Shown here piece by piece: positions 1-27,589 of a stretch of DNA of 28,377 bases. A program made the translations under genes and the position numbers. A model generated the notes under the pieces. It had not been told where the DNA came from. It worked only from the letters and a program-made list of their open reading frames with translations, and searched no databases. The stretch is from IMG/VR virus record IMGVR_UViG_3300042860_000278; one strand, 5' to 3'. Each line of letters begins with the position of its first letter. Position 1 is the first letter of the stretch. The stretch is from an uncultured virus (IMG/VR IMGVR_UViG_3300042860_000278) (Duplodnaviria > Heunggongvirae > Uroviricota > Caudoviricetes).

Positions 1-3000
1 AATTGATCACGGTAATTATCGATGATCTTGTACCAAGCTTGACGCTGGGCATCATTCTGAAACTTTAAATTGGTGTGCAGCAGCGTCCAGATATACTCAC
101 GCAGCTTAGCGGCACTTACTTGTTCGGTCGTGCCATCTGGCTTGGTGATTTGGAAGTCTTTCTTGGTGTTATCAAGCGGCGCAAACAACATGAACTTGGT
201 GCGGCGACGCTCACCAATGTGCAACGCCTTTAGCGTCTTATCCAACTTCGCCAACACTTTCTTGTATGGCAGTTTTGATTTCTTGCCATAAGCCTTGGCA
301 GCGACTTCGATAGCCTCAAAGCGCGGCATGATGCGGGACACCATGATGCCCTTGGTCAAGCCAGTCGAGACAACCATCCGGTCATAGAAGTTATTAAAGC
401 CGAGTGCGCCCACGTTTTCACGCAGCAACCGGCTAGTCATTTCCAAGCCGTTCTGAATGTCTTTCAAAACGTACCGGTAGTTCTGCAAATCGCGCGCAGC
501 TTTGAGATACGGCGTCCCGGTTAAGAATTCTTTAGCACGTTTCAATAAGCCCTGTCTGCCACCAGCCACAGAGTCGAGTTCATCGACACTCTCTTGGTAC
601 ATTTCCTCTGTGGTGCGTACCTTGGCAGGAGGTGCTTTAAACTTCTTCGCGCCACGCTGAATCAAACGTCCAACATCAACTCGACCCATAGCAATCATCT
701 TGCTTGGGGTACGGCGCAATTCAATGACAGCATCCGCAGTGTTTGCCATCTTTTCAGTGACGCTTAGAATTTGATTCAAAGCACTGTCTGCATCGGACTT
801 GAAGCCAAGCAGATTTGAGACCGTGTTAACGAACTTGCTCCACGCAGAGCGTTCGCGGCGATACGGAATCAAACGGAGCAACGCTTGTACTGAGGGATCA
901 GTCAACGCCCACGTATAGATTTCATCAATCTCATAGGTGAGCCGACCATTTCGGTCACGCTTCAATATGTTCAGCGACATCATGTCCTGAACCAAGGCTC
1001 GCATTTGATTGTTCTTGGGTAGGTTATTAGCGAGGTGCTTTAACTGCCTACCAATGTAATCACCTACTTCCTCGTACTCATCAACTGCATCGGTCAGATC
1101 GTTCTTAGTTCCAATAGCCTTTGCAGCGCGTCCAAGCTGGACGAGAGGCAACATGACGGCATGAACTATTTCATGCAACAAGGTTTTGTAATCGGCGTAA
1201 CTACTGCCAATCTCAACCTCAACACCCATGTTCAACACACCGGGCTGTCGATCTGGGTCTGCTTGCGTATAGAGCGTAGCGCGTCCTTGTGCGCCGCCCG
1301 GTAGTGACTTGACGACGCGAACCGGGAAGTCTTTCACAAGACCAGACGACACCAAGTAATCCAACACCCGCAGGAGTTGGTCAGCAACCATTCTGTAGGA
1401 TGGGCTGTCCGACGTTTTAACTACGAGGTTTAGTACCTGTACGAGTGACTTGCCATTGATCGCGTTGATCAGGGCGTCGTCGCTGAGTTCCTTACTTGTC
1501 TGCTCTGGAGTCTCTTCCAAGGCAGCGGTTGTCTGCTCAGGCGTAGCAGAGGCTTCCGACAACATGCCCGGAGTTAACTGCTCACGTTTACCTGTAACAC
1601 GCGCTTCGCGCTCAACAGACGGAGGAGCCTCGCCACCTATCTCTTTAGGTGCGCCTTCTTCCTGCGCTGCCTTAACACCGGTAGTCGCTGCGGCTTGCTT
1701 AGTGACCTTCTCAAACTGCTTGGCTTGCTTAGAAACTGCGGCGCGTTCCTTCTTTTTACCAACGCGCTCCTCAACTTCATCAGGCAGTTCGACCTTCTCT
1801 TCAACGATTGGCTTCGCCGTACCAGCCTGTATCTGTTGATAACGCTGAGCCGCTGCATTGACGATCTTAGAAGTTTCAGTCAGGTCAGGCGGGGTGACAG
1901 GATTACCCGCATCATCAACCGGGTTGGCAGCAAGATTGATGTCCGCAACAACTCGGTTGTAATCAGGCGTGGAGATTGCCCCTGCTCGGAGCAACGCTTG
2001 TGCAGCAGCCTGATATTGATCACGCTGTTCCGGTGCTAGTGCAGGGAGGACTCGACCCTTTCCAACATCAGTTGTACCAACACCTGCTCCAACACCCCCC
2101 AGTCCAGCGGACTTAGGAGGCTTAGTGGTCCCTGCGGCGGCGGCTCCTCGTTTTTGTACAACAGTTCCAGTGCCTGTTGCACCTGTTCCAGCGACAGCCT
2201 TCTGAGCAGTAGTTCGTGGGCGTAATTCACGTTTGGGTAACTCCAGTAGATACTTACGCTTTCTTGTCTTCGGGTCTGCCTTAGATACTACGCCGTTCTG
2301 TTGATAGGCATCCATCAATTCAACGGCTTGCTGACGCTCAAGCCCCGTGGCTTTTATGATCGCCGGGACGTTTACATCTTTGCGGTTCATCGCCGCTTCT
2401 TTCAGAGCCTCTGCACCTTTCTGATAAATCGGACTAGCAGGGTCTGTAAGCGGGATTGAAGGAGTGCCTTCCCCTGCTTCAAAAATTTGAGCAGAAGAGT
2501 CTGTGGGTTTGAATGTTTTTAAACCTTGATCCGTCAACGGACGTACGCCGTTGGGCATCATGTCCCCAACAAGACCCTGCGCTTGCATCTGACCAAGGAT
2601 ACGGTCAGCGTCTTCCATGCCTATGTTGAGAGCGCGTCCCAAGGCAGATGTGGAGACGCTAGCAAGAACAAAGTCCGTGCCGTCTTCTTTCTTTTCGGTA
2701 GGCGAGACCTGCCCAGACATAACAACGTTTACCGCGTTGTTATATAACTCTTCTGGTATTGGCTGCGCTTGGGGGGCCGGAGGCAGAGTTGTGGTCGTAG
2801 TTTCAGTCGTAGTTTCAGTCGTAGTTTCAGCAGGCGTGACTGTAGGCTGGGGCGTAACAGTTTTAAGCGACTGCAAACCTTCAACTCGGCCGGTAATTAG
2901 GTCAGCCTTTTTCAGTTTGCTGAGCAGAATACCCGCGCCTTTCGCATCAATATTGAATTTACTGCGAAGGATTTTGTTCCACTGATCTTTGACAGTCTCG

Positions 3001-4400
3001 TTGCCAAGGAGACGAATCGTATCTAGAGCGCGTTGCTCTAGTTCGTTAAATCCTTGGAAAGGTTCTGTTGCGGGAACAGTCTCAAATGTAGGCAGCGTAA
3101 CGTTGCCCTTGAGTTCTGTTGGTTTATCTTTCGGAGAGACAACTGTACCCGTGCCACCAGCAGGAGGCGCAGCAGTCGTAGTTACAGTAGCCGGTTCTTT
3201 CTTTTCAAGATCCGTCAGACCATAAGTCTTGACAGTATCTTTACGTATATCGTTGAGGATGCCGATTTCTTTTTCGAAGCTCTTGGCTTCGTCAATCATC
3301 TTCCTAGATTCTTCCTGCGTATACACGCCGGGAATCTTTAACTGCGCTTCAATCTGCGCGATCCGAGTCTGGTAATCGGCAACCTGACGGTCGAGTTCAG
3401 CGACGCTCTGGCGCGGCGTGAGTTCAGGTGGTTCCTGTCTTAATGCACCAAGAGCCGTAGCAGCACCGGCTTGGACACCACCGCCTACAAGCGTAGCGAT
3501 GGCAGTAACAACCTGCCTTCTGCCTTGAATAAGAGCGGCTTCGCCAGCCGACTGTGCGTTAGCAAGTTCTTCATCAAGCCCGTTTGCGTAGGCGTTGAGT
3601 GACTGCAAAAGAGTCGCAGCCTGTTCGCCCGGTATTTCACCCGCAGCAAATTTAATAAGTTCGTCTTTGACACCCTTGAGCGTCTTAACGCCAAACGCAT
3701 CGGTTAAGAATTTAGATGGGAAGTACTCCGTGCCTACTTCAATGATGGCATCAACGTTGCCGTATAGCGACGCTTGCTCAGGAGTTTTCCCTTCTTCACG
3801 CGCTTCAGCATAACTTTGCTGACGAGTGCTTAGTCCCGCTAGGGCCAAGTTTGGTAATGAACTACGTGCAGCAACAGACGCAATTAATCCCGGTGATTGA
3901 AAAATAGCACTCTCAATACCAGATCGAACGCCTTCTTCAACAACGTTCAAATCTTCTGGAGTTGCTTGACGGATGCGCTCATCGCTAGCGCGAAGCTTGG
4001 CAAGGTATTCTTGAGTTAGTTCATCTACTCGTTGCTGCGCTTCAGCGTCGTCTTTCTTTAGAATCTTCTTGGCTTCGTCAGTTTTCTCAACCATGTACGA
4101 ATAGCCAAGCTGTTTGAATCGCTCAGCTATAGACGTACCAAGTCCGGAGAAAAGCCGCCCAAATCCACGTTCTCCCACAGCAGCCATTGCTGCGGCTTCT
4201 GCGGGTTGACCCGGTTGTACTTGTGGTTGACCCGGTTGTACTTGTGGTTGACCCGGTTGTACTTGTGGTTGAGCCGGAGCGGGTTGTGCAGCATCACCCG
4301 CAACAAGTCCACGTTTGCGGGCTTCTTGAAGTAAAGCAGCTTTATCAGGTGGTAAAATCCCTCGACGCTCTGCTTCCAACAAAAGTTGGATATTAGCCAT
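1..4400 (-). CDS. Giant internal virion/ejection (polyvalent-type) protein, 3'-truncated by the window edge (>1466 aa); FtsK-gamma-like repeats and HExxH zincin domain
   Basis: ATG at 4398-4400 overlaps the upstream TAA and begins MANIQLLLEAERRGILPPDK. It is absent from the ORF track, consistent with no in-frame stop inside the window; segments translated by hand are open. TLLHEIVH with HEIVH at 1161-1175. Confidence 0.88.
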   Translation of the reverse strand, partial: MANIQLLLEAERRGILPPDKAALLQEARKRGLVAGDAAQPAPAQPQVQPGQPQVQPGQPQVQPGQPAEAAAMAAVGERGFGRLFSGLGTSIAERFKQLGYSYMVEKTDEAKKILKKDDAEAQQRVDELTQEYLAKLRASDERIRQATPEDLNVVEEGVRSGIESAIFQSPGLIASVAARSSLPNLALAGLSTRQQSYAEAREEGKTPEQASLYGNVDAIIEVGTEYFPSKFLTDAFGVKTLKGVKDELIKFAAGEIPGEQAATLLQSLNAYANGLDEELANAQSAGEAALIQGRRQVVTAIATLVGGGVQAGAATALGALRQEPPELTPRQSVAELDRQVADYQTRIAQIEAQLKIPGVYTQEESRKMIDEAKSFEKEIGILNDIRKDTVKTYGLTDLEKKEPATVTTTAAPPAGGTGTVVSPKDKPTELKGNVTLPTFETVPATEPFQGFNELEQRALDTIRLLGNETVKDQWNKILRSKFNIDAKGAGILLSKLKKADLITGRVEGLQSLKTVTPQPTVTPAETTTETTTETTTTTLPPAPQAQPIPEELYNNAVNVVMSGQVSPTEKKEDGTDFVLASVSTSALGRALNIGMEDADRILGQMQAQGLVGDMMPNGVRPLTDQGLKTFKPTDSSAQIFEAGEGTPSIPLTDPASPIYQKGAEALKEAAMNRKDVNVPAIIKATGLERQQAVELMDAYQQNGVVSKADPKTRKRKYLLELPKRELRPRTTAQKAVAGTGATGTGTVVQKRGAAAAGTTKPPKSAGLGGVGAGVGTTDVGKGRVLPALAPEQRDQYQAAAQALLRAGAISTPDYNRVVADINLAANPVDDAGNPVTPPDLTETSKIVNAAAQRYQQIQAGTAKPIVEEKVELPDEVEERVGKKKERAAVSKQAKQFEKVTKQAAATTGVKAAQEEGAPKEIGGEAPPSVEREARVTGKREQLTPGMLSEASATPEQTTAALEETPEQTSKELSDDALINAINGKSLVQVLNLVVKTSDSPSYRMVADQLLRVLDYLVSSGLVKDFPVRVVKSLPGGAQGRATLYTQADPDRQPGVLNMGVEVEIGSSYADYKTLLHEIVHAVMLPLVQLGRAAKAIGTKNDLTDAVDEYEEVGDYIGRQLKHLANNLPKNNQMRALVQDMMSLNILKRDRNGRLTYEIDEIYTWALTDPSVQALLRLIPYRRERSAWSKFVNTVSNLLGFKSDADSALNQILSVTEKMANTADAVIELRRTPSKMIAMGRVDVGRLIQRGAKKFKAPPAKVRTTEEMYQESVDELDSVAGGRQGLLKRAKEFLTGTPYLKAARDLQNYRYVLKDIQNGLEMTSRLLRENVGALGFNNFYDRMVVSTGLTKGIMVSRIMPRFEAIEVAAKAYGKKSKLPYKKVLAKLDKTLKALHIGERRRTKFMLFAPLDNTKKDFQITKPDGTTEQVSAAKLREYIWTLLHTNLKFQNDAQRQAWYKIIDNYRDQ
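2036..2230 (-). CDS. Putative nested (+1 frame) 64-aa helical protein inside the giant gene
   Basis: GTG start with GGAG at 2241-2244 (10-nt spacer); Leu/Glu/Gln-rich amphipathic product, while the host frame is a low-complexity G/T/A/V linker over the same span. Confidence 0.55.
   Translation of the reverse strand: MNYAHELLLRRLSLEQVQQALELLYKNEEPPPQGPLSLLSPLDWGVLEQVLVQLMLERVESSLH
2794..2830. repeat. 12-bp tandem repeat x3 encoding (ETTT)3 linker
   Basis: gtcgtagtttca repeated exactly three times. Confidence 0.95.
4204..4272. repeat. 21-bp tandem repeat x3.3 encoding (QPQVQPG)n
   Basis: ggttgacccggttgtacttgt exactly three times plus a partial copy. Confidence 0.97.
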
Positions 4401-5923
4401 TAGCCGCCTCCGAGCGCCGCCATAATTTCTTCATTAGTCATCGAACTAGGATCAAGCGTTGGAGATCGTGCAGCACCCGGCGCAGCCTGATTAGTTTGTG
4501 CTAAGCCCAACAGACGGTCTTCTTCGGCCTGAATCGCTGCTTCAAGTTGAGCAACGCGATTTGGATCAGCTTTATCGCGCTTGGCTTCTTCAAGCCGCTT
4601 CTGATTTCTAAGTTTATAAATCTGGCTGTTGGGGTTCTTTTCCGCGTTTTGAAGCGCAGTTACGCCTGCACGAATCTGCTCGCGATTGATACCCGCCTGT
4701 CCAGTGATGTACTGCGGTTGGAGCTTCTGCATGTTGGCAGTGACTGAATTAAACTTGGCTTGAGCAGCCGCGAGTTCTTCTGGCGTTTTAGCCGCACGAA
4801 GAGCTTTGATTGCCGCTTCGATGTCTTCCTTGAACAAGCCCAGCGGGCCGAGTTGACCCTGTGATCTTTTAAGATCATTAATCATGCGTTCACGAGCAAG
4901 CTGGACCTGCTCTCGCTGTCCGCCGTAAGTCATCATCGCTGTTCCAATACGACCTTCTTCCGCTGCTACAGCAGCCTCGTCAGCCATACGAGCAGTGCCG
5001 ATACGATCAAAGTCAGCCAACTTGGCGTTGGCATAATCACGACGCGACTTGAGTTGCTCACCCTTCACGCCGCGCTCTTCAACATCCAACTCACGGCGGG
5101 TCTTGCCAAGGCGAGCCGCAGGTTCAGCAAATCCAGTTGCTACCGCGCCCAAAAATCCCTGAGTACTCCTAGCAATCTTGTCTCCGGCCTCAAGAAAGAA
5201 CATTGCCTTGGCTTCATCGCGCCGTGCAGCAATGTTGGTAATCGCATCCTTGAACATCTTGGTCTGTTCTTTGTTGAGCTTGTCTACGCCCAGCGAATCA
5301 GCCAATGCTTTACGAGCCTTCTCTTGGCTCTCTTGGCTGGTGCGCGGACGACGCTGCAACACCATTCCAAGACCTTGAGCCTGCATCTCAGAGGGCTTCA
5401 TCTTGGCGATATTCTCTGGAGCCATCATGGGGTTCGGAGCCGGTGCAGCCGGAGCCGCCGGATAGAACGAAGCGGCGTCTACCTCTGGATACTCCTCGTC
5501 TTCATCATTCAATCCACCCGCACCAAACGCCACAATGCCACCACCTTTGGCACTGAACGTACCCGGACGAGCAAGCGTAGCCGCGCTCGTAGCCGGAAGC
5601 CCAGCGGGTGCGCCGCCCATCATAGGCGGCTGTTGTACAGGCATCTGCTGCTGCATCTGCGGGGGTGGGGCAGCGTTAGCCACGGCATTCTCAAGACGCT
5701 GACGAATCGACGGCTGCTGCATCGCTTGCTGCTGTTGCTCCGGCGACATGGCTTTACCAATCAACTCGGCGCGATTCTGCAAGTTCATCACGTAAACAAG
5801 GCTAGAGGGCAACTCTCCGCGATCTACTCGCGCCATGAGTTCCTGACGAAATGCCTGTGGGTCTTTGCCTTTTGCAGCCTGTTGCAGTGCAAGCAGTCGC
5901 GGGTCAGTAAGAATGCCATTCAT
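4400..5923 (-). CDS. Putative DNA transfer/ejection protein (507 aa)
   Basis: Helical Ala/Gln-rich ORF with AKGGGIVAFGAGG motif; lies between the pilot-like gene and the giant gene (P22 gp20-like position). Confidence 0.7.
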   Translation of the reverse strand: MNGILTDPRLLALQQAAKGKDPQAFRQELMARVDRGELPSSLVYVMNLQNRAELIGKAMSPEQQQQAMQQPSIRQRLENAVANAAPPPQMQQQMPVQQPPMMGGAPAGLPATSAATLARPGTFSAKGGGIVAFGAGGLNDEDEEYPEVDAASFYPAAPAAPAPNPMMAPENIAKMKPSEMQAQGLGMVLQRRPRTSQESQEKARKALADSLGVDKLNKEQTKMFKDAITNIAARRDEAKAMFFLEAGDKIARSTQGFLGAVATGFAEPAARLGKTRRELDVEERGVKGEQLKSRRDYANAKLADFDRIGTARMADEAAVAAEEGRIGTAMMTYGGQREQVQLARERMINDLKRSQGQLGPLGLFKEDIEAAIKALRAAKTPEELAAAQAKFNSVTANMQKLQPQYITGQAGINREQIRAGVTALQNAEKNPNSQIYKLRNQKRLEEAKRDKADPNRVAQLEAAIQAEEDRLLGLAQTNQAAPGAARSPTLDPSSMTNEEIMAALGGG

Positions 5924-5925
5924 TA

Positions 5926-7749
5926 TTAACCACCCCTACCGAAGAGATTACCCAAACCATACGCCGTCATACCTGCACCGGCAATCTGATTGACCATGCT
6001 AGGCTGCGCTGCGTAAATCGCTTGAGACGAAGTCGTTGTAGGAATACCGCGCAATACGTCAGACAAGAAGCCCAGCTGCGAGTACGGATAACGCTGCTGA
6101 GCAAGGAAGTCTTGATACTGCTGCTCCAGACGCTGCTGTTCAAGAGCCTGAAGCTGCGACCCCATGCCCATCTGCGCTTGAGCCGCTGCTTGCTGCTGAC
6201 CAAACTGTTGCTGGCCTAAGTTGCCAAGCTGACCCGCCGCAGCCAACTGCTGTTGCAATGCCTGAAGGCCAAAGTTACCACCAAACTGCCGGGACTGCTC
6301 AGCAAGCTGCGCTCCCTGCAAGCCAAACTGCGCCATCTGCTGCTGTTGAGCCAGAGCCTGTTGCTGAGCCTGAAGTTGCGCGGCCTGATTAAGCTGCTGC
6401 GCTTGCAACTGCTGACCAGAACCCAACTGCTGTACGCCAAGCAATGCAGCCAGATTCTGCTGACCTGTCGTAAGCCCCGCCTGCTGGTTGGCAAGTTGAG
6501 CCTGCATGCCCTGCTGAGCGATGAACTGACGACGCGCTTGCTCGGCAGCGAGGTTCTGCTGACCGACGTTGAAGCCCATCTGCTGATTGGCAAGCCCTGC
6601 CTGCATCGCCTGTTGAGCGCCAAGACCCTGAGTCTGCAACTGAGCAGCCAAGTTTTGCTGACCGGTCGTGAGACCAGCCTGTTGGTTAGCCAACGCAGCT
6701 TGAAGACCCGCTTGAGTGCCTAATTGCTGAACGCCAAGTCGAGCCGCCAGATTCTGCTGACCGGTGCTAAGCCCAGCCTGTTGATTGGCAAGCGCAGCTT
6801 GCATTTGAGCGGCACGGTCTGCACCGAACTGCTGCTGTGCCTGTTGGAAGGCTTGCTGACGACCTGTGGCCTCAATATCTCCAAGGCGATCCTGCAACCC
6901 GCGACGGGCTTCAGCCTGAAGCAACGCCTCACGAGTACCACCTTTAGCACCCGCACGAGCCGCAGCAGCACCCATACCGGGCAACTGACGAGCATAGTCT
7001 TGAACAGCGGCTTGCTTCTGCTGCTCCACCACATCTTGCATGTAGGGAGACATGTATTCGCGAGCTTGTTGAATACCAAACTTATCGGCACCAACCCGCT
7101 CAGCCTGCCCCATTTGATACTGTTCTAAGCCACCAATACCAACGCGCTCTGGGCCAGCCATACCAAACTGTTGCAATTCAGGAGCGCGAACCGCTTCGGG
7201 ACCACGCATCGACAACTCGCCGTACCCCTGCCCCTGCACCTGTGGGGTGGGAGCCATCTGATAATTGCGTAACTGCGGAGCCTGAACACTGCCGTAAGCA
7301 AGATCCATCGGCTGATAGAACTGCCGCTCCTGCATCGGTTGATAACCGGCTTGAGCCATCTGGTTCGCTTGTAGTCCAGCGAGTCCAGCGAGTCCTGTAG
7401 CCTGTTGAGTCTGAGCAGTCGGACCTAATTCAGCCGTACCTTGAATCGCTTGATTCTGAAGCGGGTTAAGACCCGCCATGCGCTGACCGCCGTAGACTTG
7501 GTACGGAACTTTGTTAACGTCAGTCAGTGCTTCGACACGCCCCAAAAGGCGCAGAGCAGTCGGCATCAACTGCTCGGGGATCGTGTTCTGCGTAATCGTT
7601 TGCTGAGTCGGAGCAGATGGGGCGCTACCGCCACCACCGTATGCAATGTTCGACTTCAGTTTGATGAGCGCACGGTCACCAGAATTAAAGTATGCCTCCG
7701 GCGATTCTTCATAGAAGCCAAAGTCGTGGAGCTTATTTACGCGCCTCAT
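5926..7749 (-). CDS. Gln-rich DNA pilot/ejection protein (607 aa; P22 gp7-like position)
   Basis: Follows the GNAT-like gene; leader then YGGGGSAPS; Q/A/G/L-rich repeats; C-terminal small-residue hydrophobic helix (QIAGAGMTAYGLGNLF). Confidence 0.75.
   Translation of the reverse strand: MRRVNKLHDFGFYEESPEAYFNSGDRALIKLKSNIAYGGGGSAPSAPTQQTITQNTIPEQLMPTALRLLGRVEALTDVNKVPYQVYGGQRMAGLNPLQNQAIQGTAELGPTAQTQQATGLAGLAGLQANQMAQAGYQPMQERQFYQPMDLAYGSVQAPQLRNYQMAPTPQVQGQGYGELSMRGPEAVRAPELQQFGMAGPERVGIGGLEQYQMGQAERVGADKFGIQQAREYMSPYMQDVVEQQKQAAVQDYARQLPGMGAAAARAGAKGGTREALLQAEARRGLQDRLGDIEATGRQQAFQQAQQQFGADRAAQMQAALANQQAGLSTGQQNLAARLGVQQLGTQAGLQAALANQQAGLTTGQQNLAAQLQTQGLGAQQAMQAGLANQQMGFNVGQQNLAAEQARRQFIAQQGMQAQLANQQAGLTTGQQNLAALLGVQQLGSGQQLQAQQLNQAAQLQAQQQALAQQQQMAQFGLQGAQLAEQSRQFGGNFGLQALQQQLAAAGQLGNLGQQQFGQQQAAAQAQMGMGSQLQALEQQRLEQQYQDFLAQQRYPYSQLGFLSDVLRGIPTTTSSQAIYAAQPSMVNQIAGAGMTAYGLGNLFGRGG
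6409..6804 (-). repeat. Four 33-aa (99-bp) imperfect repeats with 11-residue sub-periodicity
   Basis: MQAALANQQAG-LSTGQQNLAAR-LGVQQLGTQAG and three similar copies. Confidence 0.9.
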
Positions 7750-8189
7750 TTCGGCACCTCATCAAAATATTTTTCAAACACCACGGATTTGGCCGTGTAG
7801 CCATACTTCTTTACGTGCGGCTCCCAGCCGGGGCGACCAAAGAACTCAACCCCGTTACAGCCCATATCACGAGCGAAGCGATCAGCGGTCTCATGCATTC
7901 TGTCGGACACGTAACGCATATGCTGCGCTTCCATCGCGCAGTACTGAATCACAAAGAGTTTGCTCTTCGGGTACTGCTTAATTTCAGTTATAACGTATCC
8001 GTAAATCGTGCTGTCAGTCGGATCAAACACGACCCATAACTGCATCTGTCCGGTCAGCACAAACCGAACGATGTCATCTACACCAGAGCGTCCCTTGGTC
8101 CAACCCTCTGACTTCTCAAAGTACTTGATCAGCGACGGTACGACGTAGCTAATCTGGCCGTATGGGATTAAAGAGATGTCGAGATTCAT
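7746..8189 (-). CDS. GNAT-fold-like virion assembly protein (147 aa; P22 gp14/T7 gp13-like position)
   Basis: Alpha/beta pattern with QLWVVFD...YVITEIKQYP and FARDMGCNGVEFFGRPGW; immediately upstream of the pilot-like gene. Confidence 0.65.
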   Translation of the reverse strand: MNLDISLIPYGQISYVVPSLIKYFEKSEGWTKGRSGVDDIVRFVLTGQMQLWVVFDPTDSTIYGYVITEIKQYPKSKLFVIQYCAMEAQHMRYVSDRMHETADRFARDMGCNGVEFFGRPGWEPHVKKYGYTAKSVVFEKYFDEVPK

Positions 8190-16830: not shown

Positions 16831-17658
16831 TTAAAACGTGATTGAGCCAGAACCAGTCCATTTATAAATACGATATCCACCAGATACCGTGTAAGTTGGT
16901 GATCCCGTTGTAGAGGCTGCTGGTCCTTTTGAGTCGGAATAACGAATAATTACAATTCCAGAACCACCGCTGATTGTTCCGCCTCTACCGGAATTGGTGC
17001 CACCACCACCGCCGCCAGTATTTGCAGTACCGGGATACCCCGGAGTGCTGCTGTAATTTGATCCATCACCACCACCACCGGTGCCGCCAACGCCAACAAA
17101 GCCAAATCCGCAACCACCACCGCCGCCAGCATAAGTTACCGATGCACCGCTAATTGAACTTGCCGTGCCATCGCCGCCGTATCCACCTTGATCGGTGTTT
17201 CCCGCTTCGCTTGCACCGCCACCGCCACCACCCCAAGCAACAACAGGGCTTCCGCCGTCATTGTAACCTTGACCGCCACCAAATCCCTGACCCGCAGTCC
17301 CCGCGCCGCCAGAGCCAAATGCACCGGAAATTTCACCGCCGCCACCGCCAGAGCCGCCACTTGATCCATTATTAGAATTAGTCGCTCCAGCGCCACCTCC
17401 AGTTGCAGTAGTGGTTCGCCAAGATGAATTAGAGCCGTTATTTCCAGCAGACCCTCCGCCGCCGACAGTAACGGTATATGAAACACCTTGAGAAATACTG
17501 CTGTCAGTTCCTGTTAAGTAACCACCAGCGCCACCGCCGCCGCCCAATCCATTGGAACTTGAACCACCGCCACCGCCCGCGACAACCAAATATTCAACAG
17601 AAGTAGGTGGGGGTAATGCATAGATACCCCCGAGAAATAATTGCTGAAGTCCACTCAT
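16831..17658 (-). CDS. Glycine-rich domain protein, putative receptor-binding tip (275 aa)
   Basis: VEYLVVAGGGGG...GGGGAGG, GGSGIVIIRY and GGYRIYKWTGSGSITF. Confidence 0.82.
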   Translation of the reverse strand: MSGLQQLFLGGIYALPPPTSVEYLVVAGGGGGSSSNGLGGGGGAGGYLTGTDSSISQGVSYTVTVGGGGSAGNNGSNSSWRTTTATGGGAGATNSNNGSSGGSGGGGGEISGAFGSGGAGTAGQGFGGGQGYNDGGSPVVAWGGGGGGASEAGNTDQGGYGGDGTASSISGASVTYAGGGGGCGFGFVGVGGTGGGGDGSNYSSTPGYPGTANTGGGGGGTNSGRGGTISGGSGIVIIRYSDSKGPAASTTGSPTYTVSGGYRIYKWTGSGSITF

Positions 17659-18521: not shown

Positions 18522-19436
18522 TCAAAATGTAATGGAGCCGCTGGCAGTCCATGTATAAATGCGATAACCGCCGCTTGTAGTTACAGTAGGCGATCCGGTC
18601 GTTGAAACTGCGGCTTGGTAACTTTCCAAATATCTAATAATCACGATACCAGAGCCACCATTACCACCTGACGCGGCTGTTTCAAAACCGCCAGCACCAC
18701 CACCGCCACCACCTCGGTTTGCAGTTCCTGCAGTAGCGGTGCTAGCCGGATTACCACCACCACCGTTACCACCACCGCCAGCACCACCGGTGCCGCCAGC
18801 CGAGTTGCCGCCGCCGCCACCACCACCCGCGTAAGTAACAGACGATCCAGAAATGCTAGACGCCGTTCCTGCGCCACCGTTGCCGCCCGTTGCAGGGTTG
18901 CCGGTTGCATCAGCGCCAACCGCGCTCGCACCGCCGCCGCCGCCGCCGCCAGCGCCCGGCTGTTTGCCTAGACCACCGTTATTACCTTGTCCTGATGTTC
19001 CCGCGCCGCCCGAAGTCGTTGGTGAGGAGTCGCCGCCGCCGCCGCCGCCGCCAGAACCACCACCTAAACCGTTTTGCTGGTTTGGTACGCCGTAACCACC
19101 ACCACCGCCGCCGGTGCTAGTAATAGAACTAAAAACAGAATTAGAACCATTTGAGCCATTTGTTTGCGTGGGGGACGTTCCACCTGCGCCGCCTCCACCT
19201 ACGGTCACGGTGATAGCACTGCCTGCCGTTACAGCAAGCCCCGTCGCCGTTCTGAATCCACCGGCACCGCCGCCACCGCCGGTGTTTTTACCACCGCCAC
19301 CGCCGCCACCCGCAACAACAAGATACTCCACATTTGGAGTAATTACGGTCGGCCAGTTGCTTCCCATTAACGCATTTCGGACTTCCATTAAGTCCCAGAT
19401 GCCATCTGCGCTTGTAGTACTTGGAAACTGCGCCAT
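18522..19436 (-). CDS. Glycine-rich domain protein, paralog of 16831-17658 (304 aa)
   Basis: Same VEYLVVAGGGGG and GGSGIVIIRY...SGSITF framework. Confidence 0.82.
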   Translation of the reverse strand: MAQFPSTTSADGIWDLMEVRNALMGSNWPTVITPNVEYLVVAGGGGGGGKNTGGGGGAGGFRTATGLAVTAGSAITVTVGGGGAGGTSPTQTNGSNGSNSVFSSITSTGGGGGGYGVPNQQNGLGGGSGGGGGGGDSSPTTSGGAGTSGQGNNGGLGKQPGAGGGGGGGASAVGADATGNPATGGNGGAGTASSISGSSVTYAGGGGGGGNSAGGTGGAGGGGNGGGGNPASTATAGTANRGGGGGGAGGFETAASGGNGGSGIVIIRYLESYQAAVSTTGSPTVTTSGGYRIYTWTASGSITF

Positions 19437-21734: not shown

Positions 21735-21982
21735 TAGAGGTCTCCAATTAAGTGTGCGATTTCCGCATAGCCCTGTTTATCTAACTTCTTGCATATCGTC
21801 TCACGTTCAGCCATTTGAGCCTCAGTGAGGTATTTTACCAACCAATAGTGCAGGGCTTCCTTCGTATCTACGCGAAGAATACGGTTAGCCGCACGCTCCG
21901 CAATCTCTTCTACAGTGTGTTCCCGATGATTAGTCGTCTGCACCAGAACCTGCCCAATTTGAACTTCTGCGCTAAACATCAC
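21734..21982 (-). CDS. Hypothetical phage protein (82 aa)
   Basis: Coupled on both sides; VQTTNHREHTVEEIAE motif. Confidence 0.75.
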   Translation of the reverse strand: MMFSAEVQIGQVLVQTTNHREHTVEEIAERAANRILRVDTKEALHYWLVKYLTEAQMAERETICKKLDKQGYAEIAHLIGDL

Positions 21983-22620
21983 GAAACCACCGGAATTCTA
22001 ACCTGACCAGAACGGTATGCATCCTGACGGTTCAAGCCATCACCCAGTCTCATCAACTGTTGTAAGGCTTCCTGATACTTCTGCTCGTAGTACTGCATCA
22101 TGTCCTGTTCACCCTTGAGGTAGATATAACCTTCACGGATTGCACCGTAGAGCAGAACAGTTTCAAAGTTAGTACCGAGCCAAGACGTACCAACGTCCAC
22201 AATCGAAGCCGGGTAATAGTAATAATGCAACTCGGCTGTGTACGCGAGATCTGGCGCAGGGCCAAGAATCATCGTGTTGTCATCCCAAATCGCATAGTAC
22301 TCAGGCAACCCAGTATCGTCCGCGTCGGGATACGACTGGCGAATGAAGTTCACATCCTTATTCAGCAGGTATGTGTACTCGTTGTTTGCTGGGTTGAACA
22401 CAGCCAAAGAGAATGTCGAAAGCCAGTCAGACGGCAAGGACATGTACTTGTTCCCAATCGTCATCGTGGCAGTCGAGTTCTTACGGATGGCCGGAATCTG
22501 AACGGAGTTATAAATCCGTTCTTCAGCTAACTGCACGAACGTAGGAATATTGGCTACGAAGGAGGTCTCCGTAGACTCGCAATATTGCTGAATCAGTGTA
22601 GAAAGCTGAGAGTAATTCAC
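21979..22620 (-). CDS. Head-tail adaptor-like protein (213 aa)
   Basis: NYSQL...FVQLAEERI, LPSDW, GLPEYYA, GPAPD...ELHYY and LLYGAIREG motifs. Confidence 0.7.
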   Translation of the reverse strand: MNYSQLSTLIQQYCESTETSFVANIPTFVQLAEERIYNSVQIPAIRKNSTATMTIGNKYMSLPSDWLSTFSLAVFNPANNEYTYLLNKDVNFIRQSYPDADDTGLPEYYAIWDDNTMILGPAPDLAYTAELHYYYYPASIVDVGTSWLGTNFETVLLYGAIREGYIYLKGEQDMMQYYEQKYQEALQQLMRLGDGLNRQDAYRSGQVRIPVVS

Positions 22621-23008: not shown

Positions 23009-23386
23009 CTAGGTCGTAACGACCGTTACCGTTCCTACTTCGCCAGCCGGAGCCAGCGTGTTCGGAGTTAGTTCCGCATCGAAGGCTCTTGACCCACCGA
23101 CCGGTGCCCAACCCCATTGTATCTGACGACTACCATTGGCACCGTCATTGCCGACCGCAAAGTAGCTCGTATCCGGTCTTGGATTCCGAAGTGCTTGCGG
23201 GTCGTCCACCGGGTACAAACCCAGCGACAACTGCGGCTGATCGGGTTCCCAACACTCGGGGCAGACCAAGATATTCACGTTCTTGGTCTTGATCACAATC
23301 GACTTCAACTGGCGCAGTTTGTATTGAAAACCGCACCGGTCGCACATGGAGATTGCGTTCTTGCCACTTGCAAACCTGTTTGGCAT
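23009..23386 (-). CDS. Zn-ribbon (CxxC...CxxC) phage protein (125 aa)
   Basis: CDRC and CPEC, followed by DPQALRNPRPD. Confidence 0.8.
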   Translation of the reverse strand: MPNRFASGKNAISMCDRCGFQYKLRQLKSIVIKTKNVNILVCPECWEPDQPQLSLGLYPVDDPQALRNPRPDTSYFAVGNDGANGSRQIQWGWAPVGGSRAFDAELTPNTLAPAGEVGTVTVVTT

Positions 23387-24111
23387 TAGTAGCCACCCAA
23401 GAAACTCTCACGTGGGACAAACCGCACCGCTGCCTTTTCTCGGTCCTCGCCAGCCGCCAAATCCCAAGCTTCGTCGTACTGGGCTTTCAACACCTGAGTA
23501 CGTGCATCAGCATTTGGAATTTTCATCGACAACATGTAAGACAGACCTGCGACCAAACACGGTAAGAATCGGAACGGGATATCTTGTCCGTTCACGCCAT
23601 TACCGGGGTCAAACATCCGACGCAAACGGGTGTAGTACAGCGTCCACGTAGTCGAGTTGTCAGGCTTCGGCCAAACCGTAAACTGCGGTTTGACTACCTG
23701 CCCCGCTGCATCCGTAGCACCCGTACGCCGATTGATCCAAATCTGAATCGGGCGACCCGTCGCGTTCTTGTTCGGGATCGACACGTAGGTGCTGGACGAG
23801 ATACGGCTGATGTTGATGTCCTGCTGGTTTGTGCCAGAGCCAGTCCGGATCACATGGTCAAGCAGGTCAACCGTGTCAGCATCAAGATCGTACGTACCGA
23901 CGTTGTAAGTCAGCGTCTTGGTGCCTTCCTCTAGCGTCCAGAGGTTAATGCCTCGGTTTGACCAGTCCATCAGGAGCAGGGCAAGACTACGCTTAGCCGT
24001 ACGGAAGTCGTAACCCGTACGGAGTTCAGCACCGCACCGCTCGAACGCCTCTTCGATAATCGTGTTGAGGTCGAGGTTAAAGTCGGTGGTAGCAGTAGTC
24101 TTGTAGGCCAT
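23386..24111 (-). CDS. Head-tail adaptor / tail tubular protein A-like (241 aa)
   Basis: IIEEAFERCG...RSLALLLMDWSNRGINLW, IPNKNATGRP, and DIPFRFLPCLVAGLSY motifs. Confidence 0.7.
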   Translation of the reverse strand: MAYKTTATTDFNLDLNTIIEEAFERCGAELRTGYDFRTAKRSLALLLMDWSNRGINLWTLEEGTKTLTYNVGTYDLDADTVDLLDHVIRTGSGTNQQDINISRISSSTYVSIPNKNATGRPIQIWINRRTGATDAAGQVVKPQFTVWPKPDNSTTWTLYYTRLRRMFDPGNGVNGQDIPFRFLPCLVAGLSYMLSMKIPNADARTQVLKAQYDEAWDLAAGEDREKAAVRFVPRESFLGGY

Positions 24112-27334: not shown

Positions 27335-27589
27335 TTAACACTTCCATGCCCGTAAGGATTTATTGATCCGACTGTTAGGGTCGTTTGCCGTTTTGGCGCT
27401 AGTAAGCTTCTTTTTCATTCCAGACATTCTCGCGCAGAACGACTTCTTGCGAGGCCCGCCTTCAGGCTGTGGAGCCTTTAGACCCGGCTTGCCGGGATTG
27501 GCGCGGTTATAGGAAGCACGGCCTTTGGCATTTAAACCGCCGGACGGAGACTTTCCTTCTTTCCGCTGCCAAGCGGGGGTTTTAGCCAT
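27335..27589 (-). CDS. Conserved basic phage protein, DUF6321-like (84 aa)
   Basis: GGLNAKGRASYN...RKKSFCARM...DPNSRINKSLRAWKC; family recalled from memory. Confidence 0.72.
   Translation of the reverse strand: MAKTPAWQRKEGKSPSGGLNAKGRASYNRANPGKPGLKAPQPEGGPRKKSFCARMSGMKKKLTSAKTANDPNSRINKSLRAWKC

Follow-up and report, generated by a model that had tools for sequence, protein, structure and literature searches.

A motor-less array of three winged helices, two of them FtsK gamma-like, in a probable internal virion protein of an uncultured phage

The stretch of DNA analysed here (the window; 28,377 nt) belongs to the uncultured Caudoviricetes virus IMGVR_UViG_3300042860_000278, and its longest reading frame, open at the 3′ end, encodes the first 1466 residues of a giant protein. 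Within this protein lies an array of three predicted winged helices, two of which are gamma-like, one by its sequence and one by its modelled fold resembling the gamma domain of FtsK, and one of which is generic. We lean towards reading the array as a motor-less module that binds or tethers DNA within a polyvalent protein ejected into the host. A preliminary description of this DNA had proposed three tandem FtsK-gamma-like winged helices; all three are winged helices, at moderate model confidence, and the likeness to gamma holds for two of them. The six peptide ends that it quoted all map exactly, on the minus strand.

Architecture of the array

The full giant gene comprises 2355 codons and was taken from virus record G001, which extends the window leftwards, because the two are identical over the overlap (24,233 of 24,233 bases). 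Together they provide 46,848 bases of one phage (the 46.8 kb used for all site searches below); CheckV rates G001 as 67% complete. The gene and the elements of the array are arranged as follows, with model confidence given as the predicted local distance difference test (pLDDT):

3..4400, minus strand: giant gene, first 1466 codons, from the list of open reading frames (ORFs) and their translation; continues past the left edge of the window
2865..3044, minus strand: copy 1 (residues 453-512), a generic winged helix by fold; the peptide first quoted for it spans 2889-3044 (residues 453-504)
2760..2864, minus strand: linker 1 (residues 513-547), Thr/Pro-rich, pLDDT below 50
2535..2753, minus strand: copy 2 (residues 550-622), a winged helix matching FtsK_gamma at the sequence level (Pfam PF09397)
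2445..2534, minus strand: linker 2 (residues 623-652), mildly Pro/Thr/Ser-rich, low pLDDT (model residues 194-208), conservation 0.40
2208..2444, minus strand: copy 3 (residues 653-719, 2244-2444) with its basic tail (residues 720-731), FtsK-gamma-like fold

An AlphaFold2 model of residues 441-736 revealed three separate domains with disordered linkers between them (mean pLDDT 63), and the top rows of a Foldseek search with this model were occupied by tandem winged helices, namely those of SelB, DtxR and the N-terminal domains of O-methyltransferases. The three copies share little sequence with one another. Used as a BLASTP query, copy 2 retrieved neither copy 1 nor copy 3 at E ≤ 100, and profile comparison by hhalign gave E values of 0.027 (copies 2 and 3), 0.21 (copies 1 and 2) and 0.47 (copies 1 and 3), none of them significant; a recent internal duplication as the origin of the copies was rejected on these grounds. 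The same hhalign alignments place all three copies in one helix-turn-helix (HTH) register.

No motor accompanies the array. A motif scan for the Walker A pattern G....GK[ST] found no match anywhere in the 2355 residues, and Pfam returned neither FtsK_SpoIIIE nor any other ATPase family at E ≤ 1 over the full protein. The absence of an ATPase motif, first noted for the visible part of the gene, extends to the whole protein.

Copy 3 is predicted to adopt the FtsK gamma fold

Structural comparison of copy 3 with 999 chains, a second look at the top chains from Foldseek, placed FtsK gamma domains at ranks 1-3 (2ve8_F, Z 10.2; 2ve9_F, Z 10.0; 2j5o, Z 9.4). The next family was MntR (Z 8.3), and the E. 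coli gamma domain 2j5p scored Z 8.0. Modelled with a pLDDT of 76-82, copy 3 superposes on 2ve8_F with a root-mean-square deviation (rmsd) of 1.8 Å over 65 of 65 aligned residues, and on 2ve9_F, which is bound to FtsK orienting polar sequences (KOPS), with an rmsd of 1.7 Å over 63 of 63. A search of 48,161 representative chains made independently of Foldseek also ranked a Pseudomonas aeruginosa FtsK gamma domain first (2ve8_A, Z 9.4, 67 of 67 residues). A language-model look-up listed the FtsK_gamma cluster third for copy 3, with a score of 0.85 that falls under the tool's line of 0.9 and is a lead only.

Sequence searches gave a different picture of this copy. Pfam reported no FtsK_gamma match to it even at E ≤ 10, returning chance-level HTH matches (E about 0.1), and a six-frame FtsK_gamma search of the record found copy 2 and nothing else. 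As modelled, copy 3 is thus a gamma fold without detectable sequence similarity to the FtsK_gamma family. Together with its tail it carries 16 basic and 10 acidic residues (isoelectric point, pI, 9.85), and its wing reads KTRKRK.

Copy 2 is a borderline member of the FtsK_gamma family

Searched alone, copy 2 matches the Pfam FtsK_gamma profile over positions 19-58 of 63 (E 2e-8, 34.3 bits), above the gathering cut-off of 30.6 bits for PF09397, and in the window fragment it scores 31.6 bits. Its relative P0004 reaches 22.4 bits, and phmmer aligns copy 2 to the E. coli FtsK gamma domain 2j5p_A at E 0.034. Judged by sequence, its membership of the family is real but borderline. The model (pLDDT 71-85) contains an insertion of roughly 17 residues after helix 1, predicted as a β-hairpin between helices 1 and 2. 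Copy 2 is acidic (pI 4.2), its 11 acidic residues outnumbering the 5 basic ones, and the preliminary description was correct in calling its basic reading helix degenerate.

Copy 1 is a generic winged helix

Predicted alone, copy 1 has a helix-strand-helix-helix-strand-strand topology (mean pLDDT 69), and within the three-domain model its pLDDT is 56-67. All 50 of its listed fold matches are winged helices, with Z scores from 7.5 to 9.5 and the top matches between 9.5 and 9.0. The FtsK gamma domain 2ve8_A appears at rank 39 (Z 7.8), amid generic winged helices, and no Pfam family matches copy 1 at E ≤ 10. Like copy 3, it is basic (pI 9.6). The profile search and structure prediction proposed at the outset for each repeat therefore single out copy 2 by Pfam and copy 3 by fold, and leave copy 1 generic.

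The linkers had been described as Pro/Thr-rich, which fits linker 1 and applies to linker 2 in a mild form only. A 12-nt tandem repeat (3.1 units, 2794-2830, minus strand) encodes ETTT units in linker 1. In the relative L007, which is 92-94% identical (L007:3001-3921), this linker is longer and Thr-rich, so that the length of linker 1 varies between near-identical phages.

One fixed copy and two exchangeable ones

The assembled family consists of six proteins: P0002, L007/L009, P0003 (probably the same contig as L010), P0004, P0005 and P0006. Copy 3 is present in all six. Copy 2 is found in four and is absent from P0005 and P0006. For copy 1 there are two versions that look unrelated, four proteins having type A and two having type B, and each type is found both with and without copy 2. 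Measured against the query over four database homologues, mean identity is low in copy 1 (0.40) and copy 2 (0.44) and high in copy 3 (0.83) and the basic tail (0.96), compared with 0.62 for the giant protein as a whole. The segment 661-730 ranks second among non-overlapping 70-residue segments (mean identity 0.864), and when a locus-finding tool selected the best conserved patterns in the entire 2355-residue alignment, its choice was two peptides of copy 3. The least conserved part of the protein is formed by its N-terminal 440 residues (mean identity 0.44); a 21-nt tandem repeat there (3.5 units, 98% matches, window 4204-4277, minus strand) encodes QPGQPQV repeats at residues 42-66.

Proteins with the array are rare. 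Four were found in 5.8 billion clusters, scans of viral contigs and of metagenome contigs yielded one locus apiece, and a HMMER search with residues 441-736 against 1.84 billion representatives gave three matches, of which P0005 alone was genuine. The other two, P0007 (7872 residues) and P0008 (450 residues), were dropped as repetitive proteins in which weak repeated matches had summed up. Against 50,697 phage records, megablast with window positions 1-8000 found no match and tblastn with copies 2 and 3 had no hits at E ≤ 0.01. Copy 2 also served as the query of a word-index search among proteins of 140-2000 residues, a range that excludes the giant homologues, and retrieved none.

Residues and sites of the FtsK/Xer system

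In E. coli FtsK gamma, residues R1300, E1303 and E1306 contribute to KOPS reading (PMC2680272). Contacts with the recombinase XerD are listed in Table 1 of PMC5052618 as Q1288, R1289, R1292, I1293, G1294 and N1296; the same paper reports that KOPS and XerD are bound by one surface of gamma and that a change of R1289 reduced XerD activation most. We compared these positions in a register taken for copy 2 from the HMMER alignment and for copies 1 and 3 from weak hhalign matches:

KOPS-reading positions R1300, E1303, E1306: copy 2 has R, G, Q (one of three); copy 3 has E, D, Q (none of three identical); copy 1 has I, S, K (none of three)
XerD contacts Q1288, R1289, R1292, I1293, G1294, N1296: copy 2 has G, R, N, I, G, E (three of six); copy 3 has I, K, G, L, E, Q (none of six)

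Copy 2 therefore keeps R1289, I1293 and G1294, but only one of the four side-chain hydrogen-bond donors, and N1296 is replaced by Glu.

Site searches covered KOPS, dif and over-represented words. The E. coli-type KOPS GGGNAGGG occurs three times in the 46.8 kb (one on the plus and two on the minus strand), the Bacillus subtilis SpoIIIE recognition sequence (SRS) GAGAAGGG three times and GAAGAAG 36 times (20/16). We found no KOPS enrichment and no polarity beyond the coding-strand effect. The best dif-like site has 7 mismatches in its 22 arm positions, within the 6-8 obtained from 20 shuffles. The KOPS skew and dif-like site that the preliminary description suggested looking for were thus not detected in these 46.8 kb, in searches that are weak because the host has not been identified and no phage-specific motif is known.

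These results bear on a further proposal of that description, namely that the array engages or decoys host XerCD/FtsK. The gamma-like domain or domains would bind host XerD or compete with FtsK gamma, and would thereby trigger or block Xer recombination or segregation. Copy 2 is a true FtsK_gamma relative that retains R1289, the position most sensitive for XerD activation (PMC5052618), its acidic surface favours a protein partner over DNA, and the surface shared by KOPS and XerD in FtsK gamma (PMC5052618) would allow such a role. The contacts point the other way: copy 2 keeps one of the four that hydrogen-bond through side chains, the Glu at position 1296 would face Glu119 of XerD, and copy 3 keeps none of the six. 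Moreover, copy 2 is missing from two of the six relatives, the best dif-like site is no better than those in shuffled sequence, and the phage has its own DNA polymerase, helicase and primase. We consider an XerCD decoy very unlikely. A variant derived from the dual DNA/XerD surface of gamma, in which copy 3 clamps duplex DNA through its Lys/Arg wing while the acidic, swappable copy 2 traps a host partner of FtsK gamma (XerD, a related recombinase or a segregation factor), appears to us very improbable as well. If captured gamma domains did act as such a clamp and protein trap, a phage protein injected into the host would, on entering, disturb chromosome resolution or division there.

The array could also be a delivered, sequence-specific regulator that binds early promoters or another phage or host site and starts or redirects transcription or replication. 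Iyer et al. 2017 (PMC5512222) name the jump-starting of transcription and replication as a recurring role of polyvalent proteins, and transcription factors (MarR, IclR, DtxR/IdeR, LexA, MotA) predominate among the structures nearest in fold to each of the three copies. However, no repeated or over-represented 8-mer stands out in the 46.8 kb, where the commonest 8-mers are codon repeats such as GGCGGCGG. Pfam identified no polymerase or primase domain in the giant protein, and copy 2 is acidic. A regulatory role is, on this evidence, improbable.

The giant protein is encoded in the virion module

Outside the array, the giant protein has features of polyvalent proteins, which Iyer et al. 2017 (PMC5512222) define as being packaged and then delivered along with the DNA. 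In the same survey LPD38 is a domain restricted to phage-type polyvalent proteins, and the FtsK winged helix-turn-helix (wHTH) is among their infrequent domains and a predicted binder of double-stranded DNA (dsDNA). Pfam places LPD38 at residues 2039-2216, in the part of the gene read from G001 (E 8.4e-10, 39.5 bits, cut-off 27), and the relatives P0004 and P0005 carry it too. Two further features lie within the window:

1161..1175, minus strand: HEIVH (residues 1076-1080), the only HExxH of the giant protein, from a motif scan
4400..7749, minus strand: two genes directly upstream on the same strand, ORFs of 507 and 607 residues

HEIVH is invariant in five of five aligned homologues, as are the downstream residues E1110 and E1111. 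It is probably a zincin-like metallopeptidase motif, marking a putative autoprocessing peptidase as typical of polyvalent proteins; no Pfam peptidase family matches the full giant protein. A profile of five homologues matches the region around HEIVH to PDB 9sfn_G, named 'Internal virion protein' (E 2.2e-7). Just before LPD38, in G001, a lone hydrophobic, transmembrane-like segment spans residues 1989-2007 (MLSTMAMLGLGYFIYMMAA), with which the C-terminal body could insert into the host membrane on ejection.

Of the two upstream genes, the one for the 607-residue protein matches phrog_4287, 'DNA ejection protein' (PHROGs, E 6.1e-6), whereas the 507-residue protein has no PHROGs match; neither has a Pfam family. 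Both are probable ejection-protein partners, judging from this similarity and from their position. The virion module also holds a phage lysozyme, a tail spike, virion structural proteins and two SU10-type adaptors (family matches at 21979-22620 and 23386-24111, minus strand, E 8.9e-24 and 2.4e-7), and the adaptors point to a podovirus tail of SU10 or phiEco32 type. The proposal of a giant injected protein gains support from LPD38, from the homology to 9sfn_G and from the place of the gene downstream of the phrog_4287 gene in the virion module, which together suggest that the protein is probably packaged and injected.

This setting raises the question of whether the winged helices act inside the capsid, where binding to packaged DNA, to the portal or core or to other ejection proteins might let them position the giant protein in assembly or condensation. 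Encapsidation of the N4 virion RNA polymerase (vRNAP) needs the region around its metallopeptidase (Iyer et al. 2017, PMC5512222), the giant gene lies within the virion module, and conservation of the copy 3 block equals that of the structural C-terminal body. Protein-binding winged helices are, furthermore, frequent among the best fold matches of copy 1 (NLR WHD, cullin WHB, RPA32C). Yet copies 1 and 2 are swapped or lost between relatives that are otherwise 59-67% identical, which fits accessory effectors better than fixed structural contacts, and linkers of such length and disorder speak for reach more than for a rigid core. We regard a role inside the capsid as possible but doubtful.

A proposed tether for entering DNA

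The analysis shows the sequences, the limits of the domains, what they resemble in family and fold, how conserved and how charged they are, and the gene context; packaging, injection, DNA binding and a division of labour among the copies are inferred. Specifically, the giant protein would be packaged in the capsid and expelled into the host together with the DNA. Its three winged helices, predicted to fold independently on flexible Thr/Pro linkers, would sit between the variable N-terminal region and the conserved body that carries HExxH and LPD38. Copy 3, with a basic Lys/Arg wing kept in every relative, would be the core module for binding dsDNA, and copy 1, a basic generic winged helix, probably contributes extra DNA affinity. 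Copy 2, with its reading helix turned acidic, would be a dispensable accessory and is more likely a protein-contact module. Because the FtsK motor is absent, the array would not translocate DNA. On entry it may anchor the ejected protein to a DNA duplex, be it the leading DNA of the phage or the DNA of the host, and this tether would so place the rest of the giant protein on that DNA. DNA binding is plausible for the modelled domains, as it fits the basic and very conserved copy 3 with its Lys/Arg-rich wing as well as the basic copy 1.

Several observations weigh against a DNA tether. DNA binding is deduced from fold and charge, and winged helices serve as protein-protein modules too, as the matches of copy 1 to NLR, cullin and RPA32C domains illustrate. 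Copy 3 lacks all three KOPS-reading residues, and no 8-mer in the 46.8 kb is both over-represented and polar. The gamma assignment of copy 2 is fragile, since it falls below the FtsK_gamma cut-off when scored in the full protein (29.7 bits) or in the six-frame search (28.4 bits). Its best listed structural matches, in lists for the three-domain model that are mostly filled by copy 3, are MarR-type winged helices (Z 8.0) and not gamma, probably because of the extra predicted β-hairpin between helices 1 and 2. The AlphaFold2 models, built on alignments of 5 sequences, reach moderate confidence (mean pLDDT 63 and 69), and Foldseek found no PDB match to the three-domain model at E ≤ 0.001. Finally, packaging into the virion is deduced from homology and gene order.

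Relation to known systems

The array can be compared with FtsK/SpoIIIE itself. Copy 2 fits the family profile and aligns to E. coli gamma, and copy 3 superposes on the whole P. aeruginosa gamma chain (rmsd 1.7-1.8 Å over 63-65 residues). Unlike in FtsK/SpoIIIE, no alpha/beta motor ATPase with a Walker A motif is attached in the giant protein. The domains also depart from FtsK gamma individually, copy 2 in being acidic and in its insertion, and copy 3 in its extended Lys/Arg wing and in its lack of a profile match.

The polyvalent proteins with an FtsK wHTH in the survey of Iyer et al. 2017 (PMC5512222), exemplified by Cupriavidus WP_029307715, are likewise giant multidomain proteins encoded among late virion genes, with HExxH and LPD38. 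The protein described here differs from what that survey's text reports in having three tandem winged helices, two of them gamma-like and one of those invisible to the profile. The short-tailed Shiga toxin (Stx) phage vB_EcoP_24B encodes a 2807-residue protein, vb_24B_48, to which residues 1711-2207 of the giant protein are 24% identical (E 4e-12), and both carry LPD38. Its architecture, however, is LPD5-LPD1-MuF_C-LPD38, and it has no FtsK_gamma match at E ≤ 0.01; by these sequence comparisons the array of winged helices is confined to the window's small family and is not shared by the Stx-phage protein.

A phage FtsK_gamma domain without a motor is also found at the N terminus of the small terminase of Bacillus phages Sam46 and Sam112, for which the authors propose DNA recognition (PMC8190038). 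There the match is strong (about 2e-27), DNA-binding residues are reported as conserved, and the domain is fused to a packaging protein rather than to an ejected virion protein. The 1337-residue 'Internal virion protein' of PDB 9sfn chain G resembles the giant protein around the HExxH helix and the helices that follow it, in a match limited to about 145 profile positions.

The kind of system is therefore already known, both as FtsK wHTH domains in polyvalent proteins (PMC5512222) and as motor-less FtsK_gamma in a phage small terminase (PMC8190038). Because the FtsK winged helix already figures in the 2017 survey as a rare module for binding DNA, the finding opens no new kind of system. In the literature we found no internal virion protein described as carrying such a tandem array in which one copy is a cryptic gamma fold, although the figures and supplements of Iyer et al. 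2017 may show one.

Few phage proteins are as poorly understood as the giant internal virion proteins, which lack an assigned function over most of their length. The present case suggests that winged helices of the FtsK gamma type can stack in such a protein without a motor and that close relatives mix and match the accessory copies while one basic copy stays fixed. Because one gamma-type copy was seen by fold only, sequence-based censuses probably undercount these domains. Residues 645-735 provide a concrete, small target for studying how an ejected protein may hold DNA during genome entry.

Other features of the record

The structural module of the window includes a paralogous Gly_rich_2/phrog_2295 pair of 275 and 304 residues (16831-17658 and 18522-19436, minus strand). 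A structural protein has only distant podovirus relatives, at about 30% identity, for example in Pelagibacter phage HTVC027P and in Pseudomonas phages (two Bruynoghevirus-named records among them). An 84-residue protein (27335-27589, minus strand) matches DUF6321 and the C-terminal ends of eight PHROG families of unknown function, among which are much longer proteins. The DNA polymerase, helicase and primase mentioned above are encoded, together with an exonuclease, in the other arm of the record. In this replication arm, outside the window, G001 L002 carries an HNH endonuclease (phrog_1314, E 4.7e-73; 1-1143, plus strand) and a second small endonuclease (phrog_93; 5814-6122, plus strand).

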